Under the pieces are notes generated by a model. It did not search any database. It was given only the letters and a program-made list of their open reading frames with translations, and was not told the DNA's origin. From NCBI GenBank assembly GCA_029856125.1, contig JAHQWJ010000062.1:1-64000 (forward strand): a stretch of 64,000 bases of DNA, read 5' to 3'. The DNA is from Promethearchaeia archaeon (GTDB lineage Archaea > Asgardarchaeota > Lokiarchaeia > Sigyniarchaeales > SOKP01). A program made the position numbers and the translations under genes. Shown one piece after another: positions 16,466 through 25,205 of the stretch (the stretch's first letter is position 1; each line of letters begins with the position of its first letter).

Positions 16466-17503
16466 TTGGCCATGGCAGTTGACATAATTTCGATTCTAGT
16501 AGTTGTTTTAATTGTCTTGGCAATCGCCCTCGCATTTTCTATAGGTGCAAATGATGAAACTCTATCCACTCTAGTTGGAGCTGGAGTTATTAAATTCAAA
16601 GTAGCCTTACTGATTGGTGGTTTAGCAGTTGGAGTAGGGATGTTCTCCTTTAGTTTTGCGTTTGTAGCAAAAACCGTTGGTGCTGATTTATTAGGTGAAG
16701 CGGTAACTTATACAGAATTTATGTTGTTAGCTGTGTTAATGAGTAGTATCTTGTGGTTAGTAATTGGAAGTTTCTCAGGAATTCCCTTAAGTAGCACACA
16801 TTCATTAGTAGGAAGTATATTTGGAGTTGTAGTTGTGTATGCATTAACACATGGAGATGTTAATCCTGAAACAGCGTTTAATTGGGTAAAATTAAATAAC
16901 GTAATTCTTGGTTGGTTCTTTTCTCCATTGTTTGGATTGATCATTACATTTGTACTTTTTAAATTACTTGCGAAAGCTTATCTATCCCGATTAAAAGGTT
17001 TAAATCAAATCGAAAAATCTGAGAAAAATTTCAAATGGTTATTATTAATTGCAGTGATTTTTGCTGAGATATGGGTGGGAGCAAATTCTGGTGAGGCGTT
17101 AGGTATACTTTATGGATTATTGGATGGAGGTAGTTTGAATTTGGAGCAATATTTATTCTTTGCATTTATTTGTGGTGTTTTTTCTTGTCTTGGGATATAT
17201 ATTGCAGCGCGGTATGTTGTTAGAAATCTGGCATCTCAAATGATGGATTCTCGACCTAGCGAAAGCCTCATTACACAAATAAGTTCTGCCCTGATTCTTA
17301 TGATTGCTACCCTATTAAGCTTACCTATTTCCCATAGTCACGTAATAGTATTTTGCATAATTGGAATGAGTGTGGCTCAAAGAAAAGAAGTTGATTACAA
17401 AGGCTTAGGAAAAATGGCTATATACTGGATTCTTACTTTTCCAGTTGCTGCAATTCTAGCAGGGTTGATTTATTTTGGATTTAATTTATTTGGATTAGTC
17501 TAA
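16466..17503 (+). CDS. PiT family inorganic phosphate transporter
   Basis: GAND, PLSSTHSLVG, GANS and PISHSH signature repeats; polytopic membrane protein. Confidence 0.88.
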   Translation: MAMAVDIISILVVVLIVLAIALAFSIGANDETLSTLVGAGVIKFKVALLIGGLAVGVGMFSFSFAFVAKTVGADLLGEAVTYTEFMLLAVLMSSILWLVIGSFSGIPLSSTHSLVGSIFGVVVVYALTHGDVNPETAFNWVKLNNVILGWFFSPLFGLIITFVLFKLLAKAYLSRLKGLNQIEKSEKNFKWLLLIAVIFAEIWVGANSGEALGILYGLLDGGSLNLEQYLFFAFICGVFSCLGIYIAARYVVRNLASQMMDSRPSESLITQISSALILMIATLLSLPISHSHVIVFCIIGMSVAQRKEVDYKGLGKMAIYWILTFPVAAILAGLIYFGFNLFGLV

Positions 17504-17572
17504 TAAACTATAAAAAATACTTAGTAATAGTAAAATATAGCACTAATAAAGAAAAGAAAAGATGTGATAAAA

Positions 17573-18256
17573 ATGGGTTCATTAATAGAATTTCTAAAAA
17601 GAGAAACGGCATTGAATGTTTTAGAAAAAACAATCAAACATGCTCAAATCGTTCAACAATGTGTAAGAGAATTAGAAGTTGGGCTTAAAGTATTGCTTAA
17701 GGAAGAGAATTTTGAAAAATCTCGCGAAAACTTTCACAAAGTTGATCTTTTAGAAGACGAAGCAGACAAGTTAAGAAGAGAAATATTGAAAGATGTTTCG
17801 AGAGGAGAATTAAATCCTAGTATAAGACAAAATTTATCACATCTTATAAAAAGATTAGATGATGTAGCAAATTGTAGCACGGGAGTTGCTCGTAGAATTA
17901 CTACCATTCCTATAAAATTTTGGGAGCAGAGTAGTGAAGAAACTTTAAAATTAATATTAGAAATAATTGAAACAACTGTAGAAGCGGTAAGCAATTTAGA
18001 TAAGCTTGTTAGTGATTTAGTGGGCGAAAGGAAAAGTGTGAAAGAATATGCCGAAAAGATTAATCAATTGGAACATGATGTAGACCTTTTAAATATCAAA
18101 CTAAGAGAAAACCTTCAAAAAACAGAGTATGATGTTAATTTCTTTACAATTTTCACTGTTGGCAATATTTTTGACATTTTGGAAGCAATATCCGATTCTA
18201 TTGAAGGCGTTGCAGACTATATTATAGTTCTCCTTACAAGTTCCCGCGTTCTCTAG
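17573..18256 (+). CDS. DUF47 (TIGR00153) phosphate transport regulator
   Basis: LEDEADKLRREI, LDDVAN, LEHDVD and LEAISDSIEGVAD repeats. Confidence 0.85.
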   Translation: MGSLIEFLKRETALNVLEKTIKHAQIVQQCVRELEVGLKVLLKEENFEKSRENFHKVDLLEDEADKLRREILKDVSRGELNPSIRQNLSHLIKRLDDVANCSTGVARRITTIPIKFWEQSSEETLKLILEIIETTVEAVSNLDKLVSDLVGERKSVKEYAEKINQLEHDVDLLNIKLRENLQKTEYDVNFFTIFTVGNIFDILEAISDSIEGVADYIIVLLTSSRVL

Positions 18257-18357: not shown

Positions 18358-19251
18358 TTAATTCTTTGATTCAAAATTAATACTAATATTGGCGAGAAGT
18401 TCTTTATATCTTGAACGCAAAGTTACTTCAGTGACTGAAATAACACGAGAGATGTCTTTTTGAGAGACTTTTACATTCCTTAACTTCGCTACAAGATATA
18501 TCGCACCAGCACATAATCCTTTAGGATCTTTTCCAGAAATAGAGGTTCTTACTATAAAGTTGTGAAGCATTTTCATAGCTTCTTTTTCCACCTCAATTCC
18601 TAAATTTAGATCAGCACAGTAACGCGGGATAAGAGTTACTGGGTTTATGTGGGATATTTTTAAATTTAACTCCCGAACTAATATCTTATAACACTTCTTT
18701 ACGATATTGTCGTTAATGGAAGCTTCTTCTAGTATTTCTTGAAGCGTTATAGGTACTTTTTCGTCTTTGCATGCGTAGTATGCGCAGGCTGCAACCATCC
18801 CATTTATCGATCTTCCTCGCAATAGTTGTCTTTTAAATACCTCTTTATATAATCTAACGGCAGATTTTTTTACTCTTTCGGGAAAATTTAGATTGCCCCC
18901 TATTCTTTTTAGTTCGGTAATGGCCATTAACATATTTCTCTTTTCCCAAGACAAATGCGTATTCCATTTAGCAGCTCTTCGTAAATCAGGATTTTTGATT
19001 TTGGTTCTATCGATAACAGTACTCAAACCTATATCTGGCATCAAGATAGACATAGGAGACCCTGTTCGCTCCTTTCTATCTTTTTCGTGTTTCGAATAAG
19101 CCCTTATTCCACTATGGGTAATATCCAATCCTCTCTCTCCAACAACTAGTCCACATTGTTTACAGACAGTTTCTCCTCTTTCTTGTATAATAAGAGTACT
19201 CCCCCCGCATTCGGGGCATAAATTTGATGTTACATCTAATTCAACAACCAT
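18358..19251 (-). CDS. tfb: Transcription initiation factor IIB (alternative paralog)
   Basis: Zn ribbon CPECG..CKQCG, RTGSP, two cyclin folds (LLRGRS, SGKDPKGLCAGAIY) and VTEVTLRSRYKEL. Confidence 0.95.
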   Translation of the reverse strand: MVVELDVTSNLCPECGGSTLIIQERGETVCKQCGLVVGERGLDITHSGIRAYSKHEKDRKERTGSPMSILMPDIGLSTVIDRTKIKNPDLRRAAKWNTHLSWEKRNMLMAITELKRIGGNLNFPERVKKSAVRLYKEVFKRQLLRGRSINGMVAACAYYACKDEKVPITLQEILEEASINDNIVKKCYKILVRELNLKISHINPVTLIPRYCADLNLGIEVEKEAMKMLHNFIVRTSISGKDPKGLCAGAIYLVAKLRNVKVSQKDISRVISVTEVTLRSRYKELLANISINFESKN

Positions 19252-19356
19252 ATTAAAATACCACTTTGCTTATAATTTAATAATTTTTTTTTGTCGTTCT
19301 TTTTTTTTTACTATTCTCGTTTTTCAAGAGAATAATAGGATAATTTTTTATTAATA

Positions 19357-19430
19357 CACACACAAACATTTTTTTTGAACACAATGTTTGAACACACATT
19401 ATAACAAACAATGATAAATTTGTATTTAAA
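19357..19430 (-). promoter_or_regulatory. tfb promoter region with operator-like repeat array
   Basis: TTTAAATA TATA-like element at 19423-19430 (minus); inverted repeat CAAACATT (19363-70) / AATGTTTG (19383-90); direct repeat TTTGAACACA (19374-83, 19387-96); CAAACAAT (19405-12). Confidence 0.45.
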
Positions 19431-19867
19431 TATTATGCTTTTGTAATACAAAATATATTTTTAGTAGTACATTTATTTTTTTTTTACCCTATTCTCCTAT
19501 GAAGAAAAGGAAATTAACTAATTTGAATATAAATATTTTTTTTTGAATTAATAATAGATATATCATAAGGGTATATATTTGGATTAAAAAAACTTCTCTT
19601 GAACCTTGGGAGGAATTATTTCCTTGATTCTGGTTCTTGATAATTCCGATATCTAAATATCGCACTAAATTTGCGACTTTGATCTTATTCGAGTTAAATT
19701 AACTAATTAATTATCGTGCTATCTTTTTACATAATTTTAAATAAAACTTTTACCACTAATTTTTTGAACTTTATTAACATTTTTTTAAAAGTATAATTTT
19801 CTTTTATGGTGAAAAACAGATATCGCTAGAACCGGAAAAATCAAATAATAAAGGAAATCCATCCACT

Positions 19868-20824
19868 ATGAATGACAATAATTCAAGAAGGGATAAATCA
19901 GAAGATAAACCTAATATGACCGAAGAGGAAATAGAAAACATTAATCTTGACGACGAAAAGATAAAGCGATACATGAAAAAGTACAAAGAAGAGAACGATA
20001 AATACGCAATTTGGAGAGGGGCGATAACAGAAGGTTTTAAAAAATGGTTAAAAGGCGAAAAAATCTATACGCGGGACAAGGAAAGAATATCTTTATATGT
20101 CGACGATAAGATTAAAGGAAATTGGCAAAAATTTATAAATAAAAACAAAGAATCGTTTCCTACTTTTTCAGAGTTAATAAGACAAAGTGTTAAGTCATTT
20201 ATGGAAGATTCGAGTAGAGTATCAAGTGAATTGTCTAAACTGAACCCGAGTACCCGATCTAACATCTCTCACGCCTTAAAGGAACCCCTAACGTCTATTA
20301 AAGGTTATTCTCAGTTACTTCTTGAAAGCGAAGAATACAATGATAAATTAAGTGAGCATGTTGAAGAAACAATAAAAAATATTTTCGATCAGAGTAATTT
20401 ATTAGAAAATATTATAAAGAATTTCTTAGACAATATTCAACCTGAAAGTACTCCCTACGATATTTTATTAATTGAAGACGATTTGCCAACTATCCGGTTA
20501 ATAACAAGCTATTTTGAAAGTAAGCATTATGTCTGTAAGGGAGTTATAAATGGGACAAAAGGCTTAGAGGAATTAAGAAGGGTGGTCCCAAAAGTTATAT
20601 TATTAGACATTATATTGCCTGATTTAAGCGGGTATGATATATGTCAGACTATAAAAACAGATAGTGCTTACAAAAAAATACCAGTTTACTTTCTAACAGC
20701 GATATCCGCATCAGAAATAAAAAAACGCTTAAATGAGACGCTAGCTGATGGATACATTCTTAAACCTTTTAACTTTTCTGATTTCAAAGTTATATTTGAA
20801 ATTTTAAATGGAAAAGTGAATTAA
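19868..20824 (+). CDS. RHH-like / HisKA / receiver-domain response regulator (paralog 1)
   Basis: RISLYV..W..F..TFSELIRQSV (RHH-like); SHALKEPLTSIKGYSQLL (HisKA); IEDD / LLDIILPD / LTA / KPF (receiver). May start at ATA 19820. Confidence 0.85.
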   Translation: MNDNNSRRDKSEDKPNMTEEEIENINLDDEKIKRYMKKYKEENDKYAIWRGAITEGFKKWLKGEKIYTRDKERISLYVDDKIKGNWQKFINKNKESFPTFSELIRQSVKSFMEDSSRVSSELSKLNPSTRSNISHALKEPLTSIKGYSQLLLESEEYNDKLSEHVEETIKNIFDQSNLLENIIKNFLDNIQPESTPYDILLIEDDLPTIRLITSYFESKHYVCKGVINGTKGLEELRRVVPKVILLDIILPDLSGYDICQTIKTDSAYKKIPVYFLTAISASEIKKRLNETLADGYILKPFNFSDFKVIFEILNGKVN

Positions 20825-21133
20825 TCTGAGTATATGTTAACTAAATGATCCCCATCAAGAGAAAGATAGTGATTTTTCTTTGAGTTTGTTAACTTTTAAA
20901 AAAAATAAGTTATAACTTAATTGGATTAAATTTATTTTTTGTGAAGAATTACTTTAAAGTATAGAATTAGTTTACAAAAAATAAAAATTTTTATAATAAG
21001 CAATATAATAATTTTAGATTTTTAAGGTTAAAATTACTCAGAAATAAATAAAATGAAATAGGTGTAAAAAATTCCTAACGAAAAAGAGAACGATAACAAT
21101 TCAAATGGTACGGAAAATCACACAAATCCAAAA

Positions 21134-22024
21134 ATGACTGACGAAGAAATAAATAATCTGGATTTGAATAGCGAACAAGCGAAGAAGTTAATGAGGGTGT
21201 ATGAAGAGACAACGGATAAATATGCTAATTGGCGTGGAAATATAACAGAAGGTTTTATGAAATGGCTTAAGGGAGAAAAAATATACGACAGAGAAAAAGA
21301 ACGCATTTCCTTGTATGTAGCAGACAAAACCAAAGAAGAGTGGAGCGAGTTTATTAAAACTCATAAAGATAAATATAACACCATTTCCAAACTTATACGA
21401 GAGAGTGTTAATTATTTTATTAAGCAAGATTCCACTTTAATCAATGAAGATCTGCATAAATTAGACAATCAGACTCTCACAAACATATCGCATGCTCTAA
21501 AGGAACCGTTAACATCAATCAAAGGATTTTCTCAACTATTGATTGAAAATTATCGTGATGAGATGGAAGAAAATGTTTTTAACACCATTCAAAATATATT
21601 TAATCAATCTTTGCTTTTAGAAAACAAAATTATCACCATTCTGGACAATATAAAAACAGAAACTTCTCAATACGACATATTGCTAATAGAAGATGACTTA
21701 GCTACTATTCGTTTATTAACAAGCTATTTTGAAAGCAAAGGCTTTTCCTGTAAGGGTGTAGTTAGTGGAACAAAAGGATTGGAAGAGCTAGCAAATAACC
21801 CACCTAAGTTGGTATTGCTTGATATTATTTTGCCCGATTATAGTGGATACGACATCTGCAAACGAATTAAAGCAAGTAAAGAGCTTCAAAACATTCCGAT
21901 TTATTTGTTAACTGCTATACCAGGTTCAGAAGTAGAAAAGAACCTCGAAGATAGTAATGCTGACGGTTATATTCTAAAACCATTTGACTTCTCTGATTTT
22001 GAAGTAATATTTCAATATTTATAG
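21134..22024 (+). CDS. RHH-like / HisKA / receiver-domain response regulator (paralog 2)
   Basis: Same motifs and domain order as 19868-20824, with long identical peptide blocks. May start at ATT 21071. Confidence 0.85.
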   Translation: MTDEEINNLDLNSEQAKKLMRVYEETTDKYANWRGNITEGFMKWLKGEKIYDREKERISLYVADKTKEEWSEFIKTHKDKYNTISKLIRESVNYFIKQDSTLINEDLHKLDNQTLTNISHALKEPLTSIKGFSQLLIENYRDEMEENVFNTIQNIFNQSLLLENKIITILDNIKTETSQYDILLIEDDLATIRLLTSYFESKGFSCKGVVSGTKGLEELANNPPKLVLLDIILPDYSGYDICKRIKASKELQNIPIYLLTAIPGSEVEKNLEDSNADGYILKPFDFSDFEVIFQYL

Positions 22025-22055
22025 AAATATATTAGCATTTTTTATTAAAAATAAG

Positions 22056-22129
22056 CGGGCTATGAGGGAATCGAACCCCCGACCTGCCGGTTAAGAGCCG
22101 GATGCGCTACCTGACTGCGCTAATAGCCC
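22056..22129 (-). tRNA. tRNA-Lys(CTT)
   Basis: GGGCTAT...GCGCAGTCAGGTAGCGC...CCGG-CT-CTT-AA-CCGG...GGGGGTTCGATTCCCTC-ATAGCCC-G. Confidence 0.93.
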
Positions 22130-22154: not shown

Positions 22155-22255
22155 CGCACCTGGAGGGATTTGAACCCCCGAGCGCTTACGCGCACTGGCT
22201 TACTTGATCGTATTGTCTACTCAAGGCCAGCGTCTTACCACTAGGCTACAGGTGC
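22155..22255 (-). tRNA. tRNA-Ser(TGA) with canonical 37/38 intron (22201-22219)
   Basis: Acceptor GCACCTG/CAGGTGC, CTGGC-CT-TGA-G[19 nt]A-GCCAG, long variable arm, G73; CTTG/CAAG BHB helix. Confidence 0.9.
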
Positions 22256-22503: not shown

Positions 22504-22986
22504 ATGAGTGGGGCAAAAAATTTTAGGTATTTGATACCAGATCGATTATTTAAAGAAATTACCCAGAAAGCCGCAGAGGTTCATCCAAACATCGAACACT
22601 ATTGGATTTTTGCTGATCGTAAAGAAAACTTTGGAATTGTTAATAAATTTATTGTTAATCCAGATTTAAGAAAATCAAAAACCCACGTCAAACCAAGAAG
22701 TTGGATGAGATATAAAAAGTCAAAAATTTATAACATGCGTAAGTTTAAACAGGAACTTAACGTAGATATCGTCTGGCAAGCACACACACATCCATCGGGA
22801 AACGATAAACTACACCCAATTGATAAGAGGATACTTAAATATCTTTCAAATGGGGTTATGATTATCATTATACCTCACATACCAGAAAAAGAGTTAGAGG
22901 GGCATATGGTGGGTTGGTATTACGATAAGCGCTATACAAAAAAACCGATGATTGAAAAGATGGTCTTTGAGATTATCCAAGAATGA
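22504..22986 (+). CDS. JAB/MPN (JAMM) domain protein
   Basis: N-terminal E in HPNIE and the motif WQAHTHPSGNDKLHPID. Confidence 0.75.
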   Translation: MSGAKNFRYLIPDRLFKEITQKAAEVHPNIEHYWIFADRKENFGIVNKFIVNPDLRKSKTHVKPRSWMRYKKSKIYNMRKFKQELNVDIVWQAHTHPSGNDKLHPIDKRILKYLSNGVMIIIIPHIPEKELEGHMVGWYYDKRYTKKPMIEKMVFEIIQE

Positions 22987-23638: not shown

Positions 23639-23740
23639 GCAATCGTCGCTTAGCTTGGTAGAACGCTTAAGCGTGCTAAAAGCGCTGGATTGCTAATCCA
23701 GTGTCCAACGGACTCGAGGGTTCGAATCCCTCCGATTGCG
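23639..23740 (+). tRNA. tRNA-Ser(GCT) with D-arm intron (23662-23680)
   Basis: GCAATCG/CGATTGC-G; CTGGA-TT-GCT-AA-TCCAG; long variable arm. Removing 19 nt restores GCTTAGCTTGGTAGAGCG. Confidence 0.88.
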
Positions 23741-23763
23741 CTCTAATAATCTTCAAACAATAA

Positions 23764-23866
23764 GGGCCCATGGTCTAGTGGTTATGACGTCTCGCTTACA
23801 CCGAGAAGGTCGGGAGTTCGATTTTAAAGCGAAATTATCGCTTAAACGAAAACCTCCCTGGGCCCA
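23764..23866 (+). tRNA. tRNA-Val(TAC) with T-loop intron (23823-23852)
   Basis: GGGCCCA/TGGGCCC-A; TCTCG-CT-TAC-AC-CGAGA; BHB with TTCG/CGAA central helix. Splicing restores TTCGATC. Confidence 0.9.
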
Positions 23867-23870
23867 TTAT

Positions 23871-24665
23871 TTATAATTTCGATGTATATAATTTTTTAAT
23901 TCTTTCAGACCGAATTGCATTTAATTTGCAGTTTTTTAGATATTTTCCTATATCTGCAATAATTCCTGGAGCAGTGGTAGATTCTCTTAATATTACTATG
24001 TTTTCTAGAAATCCGAAGCGTTCTATTGAAGCAATGTCCCGATAATGTCCAGTTTTCACAAGTGCTTTTTTAAATTGACCTTTAGTTTCACCACTAACAA
24101 ACACCGCCTCGAGATTCTCTGAAATCAGTTTTTCGTAAAAATCTAACGTTTTTTGATCTAAAACGCCTTGGATTTGTTGTTTTTCTTTATTTATCGCAAC
24201 AATCTTCACATAAACAGGGAATTTATTAATAAAATCATAGGTTTTGATAATTTCTGTCAATGAAACAGTTTTTCCATTACACAATTGAGTTCTCAAATCA
24301 TGAAGGTTTAATAATACATCAATCTTAGGATTTACAATGGCACAGTCTACAAAAATTCCAAAACCTACTTTTCCTACATCCAATAAGACTCCTTTAAAGA
24401 CGTCGTTTGTATTAACATCTTCAAATTCATGTATAGCCCCAATCTTTTTCTTTAGTAGATTTAAAATGAATACTTCTTCGCCCCCTGAAATGAGAATTTC
24501 AAACCTATTATCAAACTTTCTTAATTTTTTAATACGGATTTTAGTGCCCGGAAAGCTCTGGCTTACTTCTTTTAAGTATTTAAGGTATCTAATCGAAATA
24601 TCTTTGACGTTGCCTTTTTTTGGGATATTATATATTTGATCGTATAAAACCAGTGATTTTACCAT
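23871..24665 (-). CDS. DUF2110 family protein (S1-like domain)
   Basis: G.L.DVGKVGFGIFVD and TTAPGIIADIGKYL motifs. Confidence 0.65.
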   Translation of the reverse strand: MVKSLVLYDQIYNIPKKGNVKDISIRYLKYLKEVSQSFPGTKIRIKKLRKFDNRFEILISGGEEVFILNLLKKKIGAIHEFEDVNTNDVFKGVLLDVGKVGFGIFVDCAIVNPKIDVLLNLHDLRTQLCNGKTVSLTEIIKTYDFINKFPVYVKIVAINKEKQQIQGVLDQKTLDFYEKLISENLEAVFVSGETKGQFKKALVKTGHYRDIASIERFGFLENIVILRESTTAPGIIADIGKYLKNCKLNAIRSERIKKLYTSKL

Positions 24666-24833
24666 AAAAATTCTCAAAAATTAGTGATATGAATAATATT
24701 ATAAAGAATTGCTTAAATCTAAAATTTCCCTTTTTCTCACATCACATCAAGATTTTCTTTCGTTCTAACAAAATTTATATTAGTGTGGTTTTATGATTCA
24801 TTAAACACAATAGTAGAGAATTATGGTGGAGAT

Positions 24834-25205
24834 ATGGAACTACAACGTTTTAAATATTTAGTAGACCAATTAAGGGAATATGACGGGATGGAAGAGATTT
24901 TCGTGTTGAGTCCTGAAGGTGAAATCCTTTTTAAATCTGAAGAATTCCAATTATCAAATGACGATGCAAAAGCGATCTTACAAGCGTGGAAAGAAAATGA
25001 ACAAGCTTTAATGTTCCAGAGTTATAGATATGCCATTTTAAAAAACGATGAGATACAACTAGCAGCAAAAAATATTGTTGGAGGAAAAGGCAATATAGTT
25101 GGGTCCATTACGAGAGAAGGAGACTACATCATAGCCCATACGCAAGATAAGGGCCTTATTGTGCTTGAATGGTCTATTTTTATCAATAAGGTTGCTTGGA
25201 GTTAG
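24834..25205 (+). CDS. Profilin-like protein
   Basis: 123 aa from the ATG after GGTGGAG; pattern VLSPEGEILFKS..F.L...I...W......F....Y.I.....QLAAKN..GKGNIVG...YIIAH resembles Asgard profilins. Confidence 0.7.
   Translation: MELQRFKYLVDQLREYDGMEEIFVLSPEGEILFKSEEFQLSNDDAKAILQAWKENEQALMFQSYRYAILKNDEIQLAAKNIVGGKGNIVGSITREGDYIIAHTQDKGLIVLEWSIFINKVAWS

Follow-up and report, generated by a model that had tools for sequence, protein, structure and literature searches.

Organization of the locus and its three genes

The window analyzed here, the whole 64,000-nt stretch of DNA from a Promethearchaeia archaeon, contains two tandem genes for response regulators, RRa (positions 19868–20824, plus strand, 318 amino acids) and RRb (21134–22024, plus strand, 296 amino acids), which lie divergent from a gene for a paralog of transcription factor TFB (tfb; 18358–19251, minus strand, 297 amino acids). 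The DNA has a G+C content of ~31%, near-identical proteins are Lokiarchaeial (Promethearchaeota), and a profilin-like open reading frame (ORF) is found nearby. RRa and RRb are 61% identical over 298 residues and have the same domain order, which consists of an N-terminal module (N-module), a ribbon-helix-helix (RHH) segment, a DHp helical hairpin of the HisKA type and a receiver domain (REC). In RRa, these correspond to nucleotides 19949–20074, ~20072–20236, 20258–20431 and 20462–20785, respectively. In RRb, they encompass residues 12–53, 53–108, 112–171 (with His120) and 182–293 (with Asp230 and Lys282).

Both proteins match the Pfam families HisKA (PF00512; 45.4 bits for RRa and 31.0 bits for RRb, with a curated cut-off of 26.9) and Response_reg (PF00072; 67.1 and 68.6 bits, cut-off 30.2), and neither matches HATPase_c. 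The two paralogs of identical architecture described in the original prediction, which also reported the missing ATPase domain, are thus present. An aromatic motif is found in each regulator (KYAIWRGAITEGFKKWLKGEKIY and KYANWRGNITEGFMKWLKGEKIY), the H-box reads SHALKEPLT in both, and the receivers contain the EDD acidic pocket, the acceptor Asp in LLDIILP, the Thr in LTA and the KPF motif (EDD, Asp230, Thr260 and Lys282 in RRb), so that all residues needed for Asp phosphorylation are present. These sequence features had been noted earlier in the same form. The accompanying claim of a missing sensor domain goes too far, given that each protein carries an N-module of ~40 residues to which no function is assigned.

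The product of the divergent gene consists of a Cys4 zinc ribbon with a CPEC...CKQC motif (Zn_Ribbon_TF, E 5.9e-9) followed by two cyclin/TFIIB repeats (two Pfam TFIIB matches, 2.6e-40), and the core of Pyrococcus TFB (PDB code 1d3u) matches it at 6.9e-38. Counting this protein, the genome encodes seven TFB paralogs, and the one nearest to it is 61% identical. The protein scores 134 bits against 1d3u and 123 bits against human TFIIB, compared with 185 and 159 bits for the paralog at C84:133744, and its B-linker region is shorter. The label "alternative TFB" given to it in the original prediction is, therefore, reasonable from the sequence.

Structural models of the regulators

Pfam has no separate family for the first 110 residues of the regulator. 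When 1.84 billion cluster representatives were searched, only 91 relatives were retrieved at E ≤ 0.001, and the best matches of the family profile in the PDB are RHH proteins, namely ORF56 of pRN1 (2k9i; E 0.026) and SvtR (2kel; 0.043), followed by ArtA and ParD-type antitoxins, with RHH chains spanning E values of 0.026 to 1.8. Among 59 relatives, seven match Pfam RHH_1, four match RHH_3 and one matches CopG_antitoxin at 1e-6; RHH_5 is also touched. The AlphaFold2 models of RRb have predicted local distance difference test (pLDDT) values of 91.7 for the full length and 89.4 for the N-terminus, and display an extended segment (residues 55–62) followed by two helices (residues 64–76 and 84–104). 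The top matches of residues 53–108 in Foldseek, exhaustive VIA and ESM Atlas searches are almost all RHH domains, including those of ParD2 (Z 5.9), TacA1 (Z 5.8), NikR (Z 5.5, root mean square deviation 1.1 Å) and PutA (Z 5.1, 0.9 Å), the last two over 44–51 residues. The profile searches and the fold searches of the model together support the RHH assignment that had been proposed from the sequence, and residues 53–108 of RRb are shown in silico to adopt the RHH fold. Arg57, Tyr61 and Ser85 are nearly invariant in the family and position 59 is a conserved Ser/Thr; in an RHH structure, these residues would lie on the outer, DNA-facing surface of the strand and where helix 2 begins. A fold search with the full-length model returned receiver domains only (TMq ≤ 0.38), and no solved protein spans the whole architecture.

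The DHp hairpin is formed by two helices (residues 112–139 and 146–171) that are joined to the RHH by a short, less confident linker and are directly followed by the receiver, which begins at residue 182. The homodimer model of RRb reaches an ipSAE value of 0.51 (0.39, 0.51 and 0.51 in three runs) against 0.00 for the best control, with a contact agreement of at least 85% between runs and a partner pLDDT of at least 74. In calibration, the ipSAE mark was attained by 20 of 30 solved homodimers and by one of 23 monomers. The modelled interface involves the RHH (residues 54–99) and both DHp helices (residues 118–170), which together form one symmetric dimer interface in which residues 54–64 of the two chains pair, while the receiver and the N-module remain outside. 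Because solved structures include many RHH and DHp dimers, the prediction may reflect memorized examples, and the passing model should be read as likeness rather than proof.

Kinase and phosphatase activities of the H-box require an acidic residue at the position after the His (H+1) and Thr or Asn at H+4. The regulators carry Ala and Glu at these positions (H-A-L-K-E-P) and, since they also lack an ATPase domain, autokinase activity is excluded on sequence grounds and canonical phosphatase activity is unlikely. The His itself is retained in only 32 of the 51 family representatives, where the Spo0B/ChpT type would have a phosphorylatable His in all members, and is replaced by Tyr, Phe, Glu, Arg, Asn and others in the remaining 19. 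By comparison, the receiver Asp230 is retained in all 33 representatives compared and Lys282 in 31 of these. In the tfb-linked clade, the sequence ISH[AT]LKEPLT is unchanged in every upstream and downstream ortholog, at overall identities of 57–97%. The loss of the His in 19 representatives indicates that the DHp hairpin may serve as a scaffold first of all across the family, and a His-dependent step may exist in the tfb-linked clade; the notion that the His is dispensable everywhere was rejected in view of its invariance in that clade. The HisKA segment had been predicted to act as a phosphotransfer or dimerization hub. The dimerization part of this claim is sustained by the controlled model, in which the RHH contributes as well, whereas a general phosphotransfer role is at odds with the replacement of the His.

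In the models, the N-module folds into two helices separated by a hairpin. Within this genome, its profile matches the C-terminal tail of RNA polymerase subunit A' at E 5.8e-9 (a module of ~30 residues at C138:57331–57420, equivalent to L057:2884–2973), where it is preceded by Pfam Rpb1 domains 1–5. It also occurs at the N-terminus of an ABC-transporter ATPase (E 1.3e-10) and near the ends of two proteins that have no Pfam family (these three at C126:290709–290804, C148:4409–4486 and C42:33607–33681). Its fusion partners in other genomes include Ras/Arf GTPases, gelsolin and a receiver that has neither RHH nor DHp. A polymerase-specific role was considered and rejected, as the module is likewise attached to the ABC ATPase, membrane proteins and GTPases, and it is probably a promiscuous terminal tag for protein contacts. 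A language-model atlas search with residues 1–54 gave no usable match.

Conservation of the tfb linkage, the spacer and the family

The original prediction had called for a synteny check of the tfb linkage, which was made in 20 loci from eight genera. The gene is divergent from and adjacent upstream of the regulator pair in 16 of the 20, distributed over five genera (g1, g2, g5, g6 and g7), and the linkage is therefore conserved. One of the other four loci ends at a contig end, two (g4) have no tfb, and one (g8) has a tfb ortholog, 71% identical, on the same contig ~10 kb from the pair. A close ortholog of this TFB is absent from g4, where the best match is 58% identical. On the far side of tfb, genes are conserved in only two loci, which indicates that tfb travels with the pair rather than with its other neighbors.

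The spacer between tfb and RRa has 616 nt in this genome and 538–3050 nt in the other loci. The sole invariant block in an alignment of 17 spacers is TATTTAAAT (19423–19431), which belongs to a palindromic TATA-like element, TATTTAAATA (19423–19432, minus strand), that is conserved as [TC]AT[AT]TAAAT in all 17 and is proposed to be the tfb promoter, with a leader of ~150 nt. The element lies 118–171 nt from the tfb start in all 17 spacers, but 416–2932 nt from the RRa start, and it is located 158 nt from tfb in g8 even though the regulator pair is ~10 kb away. Shine-Dalgarno-like GGTG/AGGGT words 5' of the tfb start fit a leadered mRNA.

Two direct TTTGAACACA repeats, spaced 13 nt start to start (19374–19396), constitute a candidate operator at the predicted tfb transcription start. 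The word TTTGAACAC is rare, with 28 occurrences in the 3.69-Mb genome, about seven of them intergenic (outside long ORFs) and two of these at this position, and related motifs that combine a T-tract with ACAC are found at the same place in most orthologous spacers. A TTATAAC half-palindrome (19399–19405) is located between the repeats and the TATA-like element, which is flanked by GTTATAA/TTATAAC-type words in most loci. Of the 440 TATTTAAAT sites in the genome, only this one combines the TATA-like element with an ACAC motif and TTATAAC. Clusters in which at least three ACAC-type motifs fall within 150 nt were not found in the genome. A similar module, TATTTAAATA / GTTATAA / GTGTGTAAAA, occurs upstream of the g4 pair that lacks a tfb neighbor. 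On the RRa side, TTTAAATA followed by TTTTACCAC and TTTTTTGAAC (19736–19769, plus strand) may represent a weak candidate RRa promoter with similar downstream motifs, read from the sequence; the RRa-proximal part of the long spacer is conserved among close relatives only, and the spacer between RRa and RRb has no element conserved across loci. Taken as sequence patterns, these elements are compatible with an operator devoted to the start site of tfb and possibly with autoregulation.

Among 151 sampled genomes of the class, 127 have the N-terminal region, with 121 of 126 genomes in one family (f1), all three in a second (f3), two of 13 in a third (f2) and none in four others. So far, the regulators occur almost only in one Lokiarchaeial family. 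In a quick maximum-likelihood tree, the upstream and downstream copies form separate clades (SH-aLRT 97 and 87), with the g4 pair branching outside both. This topology implies that the tandem duplication is older than the split of genera g1, g2, g5, g6, g7 and g8, and that both copies have been kept since. A third paralog in the genome has RHH, DHp and receiver, but not the N-module. In its open frame (L003:1476–2226, on contig C32), residue 55 is preceded by no start codon in the reading frame; the GTG at L003:1476 is shifted out of it by one base, whereas a relative starts with MKIISKNEK. The reason would be a frameshift, an error in the assembly or an atypical start.

Seven proteins that combine HisKA and HATPase_c are encoded in the genome, none of them on the regulators' contig, and no HATPase_c match was found anywhere on contig C63. 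RRa and RRb are therefore predicted to be orphan response regulators. The genome has 11 receiver domains, of which three belong to this regulator family, and proteins of this design are for that reason likely a main transcriptional output of its two-component systems.

Directly downstream of RRb there are a tRNA-Lys(CTT) gene (22055–22129, minus strand) and a second tRNA gene (22155–22255, minus strand; 101 nt) that was found by Rfam alone (47 bits) and therefore probably contains an intron. They are followed by orf160 (22504–22986, 160 amino acids), which is syntenic with the pair in 16 of the 20 loci, on the same strand in most. This protein has no Pfam match and no meaningful PDB sequence match; it contains an HTHPSG...HPID stretch that resembles a JAMM/MPN metal site. 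Weak plus-strand tRNA-like Rfam matches (31.8 and 22 bits) at 23639–23820 were not called by ARAGORN. At 23871–25205, a DUF2110 gene lies divergent from the profilin-like ORF, whose Pfam Profilin match (E 0.0033) is below the cut-off, and the pair is conserved in most related loci. On the other side, a gene for a PiT-like membrane protein and, after it, a PhoU_div (DUF47) gene occupy 16466–18256, and this phosphate-transport pair adjoins tfb in the closest relatives only.

Proposed mechanism and relation to known systems

The tandem regulators are a real feature of this locus, and the hypothesis that they regulate transcription is plausible from their sequences. We propose that RRa and RRb are orphan, phosphorylation-controlled RHH regulators in which the DHp hairpin is mainly a dimer scaffold, and that they probably act on the tfb promoter, a reading to which we assign a probability of roughly 55%. 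The DHp hairpin would hold the RHH pair together constitutively, one of the approximately seven unlinked histidine kinases would phosphorylate the receiver Asp, and phosphorylation would alter DNA binding by the dimer or by dimers of dimers. The most likely target would be the shared upstream region, chiefly the promoter of the divergent, non-canonical TFB paralog. The candidate operator repeats sit just downstream of the putative TATA-like element of this promoter, which is the typical place for archaeal repressors that block polymerase recruitment. In the tfb-linked clade, the invariant His may contribute a further step of His-Asp transfer, on which the model does not depend.

Several points weigh against this proposal. 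RRb itself has no Pfam RHH match at E values up to 1, and the fold-match statistics are individually weak for a domain of ~50 residues (Foldseek E above 1, Z below 6); single scores are modest, but the agreement for an RHH across methods is strong. The TATA-like element is palindromic, and its direction was inferred from the conserved flank, which is A-rich upstream on the minus strand and, in view of the archaeal B recognition element, fits a tfb-facing promoter. The related genomes are kin, and the 16 linked loci are not independent trials. The strict conservation of ISH[AT]LKEPLT in the tfb-linked orthologs suggests that the His does more than a pure scaffold needs. Moreover, the conserved adjacency may be plain synteny, as orf160, the DUF2110 gene and the profilin-like gene on the other side of the pair are also syntenic. 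This last point would equally be expected if the regulators bind DNA but act on their own genes or on distant ones, with the position of tfb being an inherited gene order. The g4 pair, which has the promoter-like module upstream of itself and no tfb next to it, and the f3 homologs, which are 49% identical and off any tfb contig, are consistent with such an arrangement. It is countered by the TATA-like element, whose distance is fixed to tfb and not to RRa and which stays with tfb in g8, and by the far flank of tfb, which is not conserved, while g4 also lacks a close ortholog of this TFB. We regard a target other than tfb as somewhat improbable.

The invariant H-box of the tfb-linked clade could also reflect a working phosphotransfer site at the DHp His, like that of Spo0B/ChpT, which exchanges phosphate with the Asp of its own or the partner receiver, so that the pair relays phosphate. 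Roles of kinase-less HisKA domains as phosphoacceptors or phosphatases have been raised before (Galperin et al. 2018, PMC5847659). Such a phosphorelay node appears unlikely, given that the His is replaced in more than a third of the representatives while the receiver Asp is invariant, and that Glu takes the place of the Thr or Asn of the phosphatase motif at H+4; the dimer model, which is weak evidence on this point, has no confident inter-chain contact between receiver and DHp. The long retention of both copies as separate clades across genera, together with predicted interface segments that are alike in RRa and RRb, might be explained by an obligate RRa:RRb heterodimer as the functional unit, yet the homodimer model already passes, and the third paralog and single-copy genomes exist. 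An obligate heterodimer is, in our judgment, quite unlikely. Finally, the RHH could be a protein-binding or structural dimer element that does not bind DNA, like some antitoxin N-termini, with the output passing through the N-module, which does behave as a promiscuous terminal tag on RNA polymerase A', the ABC ATPase and small GTPases. The conservation of Arg57, Ser/Thr59, Tyr61 and Ser85, and a third paralog that has the RHH but not the N-module, make this very improbable.

Phosphorylation-controlled RHH regulators that act on the tfb promoter would, in a more speculative extension, wire Lokiarchaeial two-component signaling into basal transcription, such that the RHH-DHp-REC pair turns an alternative TFB on or off as an archaeal equivalent of sigma-factor switching and the N-module is a lineage-specific docking tag to the polymerase or to GTPase signaling. 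We put this extension forward as a doubtful one. Asgard archaea are the closest archaeal relatives of eukaryotes, and to our knowledge the connection from sensing to transcription in this group is essentially unknown. The conserved link to an alternative TFB provides a concrete and testable case of regulated general transcription factor exchange, and the promoter fragment with its rare conserved repeats is a ready substrate for binding assays.

The term "new signalling system" used in the original prediction is an overstatement. The order of RHH, HisKA and REC was already recorded in one sentence for Lokiarchaeum GC14_75, with four copies in one genome and further metagenomic copies, in a study that also describes DNA-binding outputs as rare among archaeal response regulators (Galperin et al. 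2018, J Bacteriol 200:e00681-17, PMC5847659). Those proteins share both domain order and lineage with RRa and RRb. No further publication with this architecture emerged from a phrase search of the literature, nor are these regulators treated in an article of 2023 on Asgard kinases. The sentence in PMC5847659 mentions neither the N-module nor the tfb linkage, gives no cis-elements or structure model and does not say that the His varies. Beyond that study, the present analysis adds structural support for the RHH and for dimerization, traces the linkage to tfb and the range of genera over which it holds, and describes the conserved promoter module, the differing conservation of the His and the shared N-module.

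Spo0B/ChpT and the archaeal proteins with HisKA and no HATPase resemble RRa and RRb in that their DHp hairpin contains a His but is not joined to a functional kinase domain. They differ in carrying PAS/GAF sensors or a degenerate CA domain and in lacking a DNA-binding domain, and the His is not conserved in the family described here. The receiver-controlled DNA-binding design that is predicted for RRa and RRb is that of OmpR/PhoB, NarL and the archaeal HTH-REC regulators LtrR and FilR1, and the regulator receiver is closest in sequence to those of MtrA, RpaA and DivK. By contrast with OmpR/PhoB, NarL, LtrR and FilR1, the output of RRa and RRb is an N-terminal RHH rather than an HTH, a DHp four-helix-bundle dimerizer is placed between output and receiver, and no cognate kinase gene is located nearby. 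With NikR-type RHH regulators, RRa and RRb share the general plan of an N-terminal RHH dimer that a C-terminal oligomerizing or sensing domain holds together and controls; the two differ in the control module, which is a metal-binding ACT-like domain in NikR and a DHp hairpin with a phospho-receiver in RRa and RRb.

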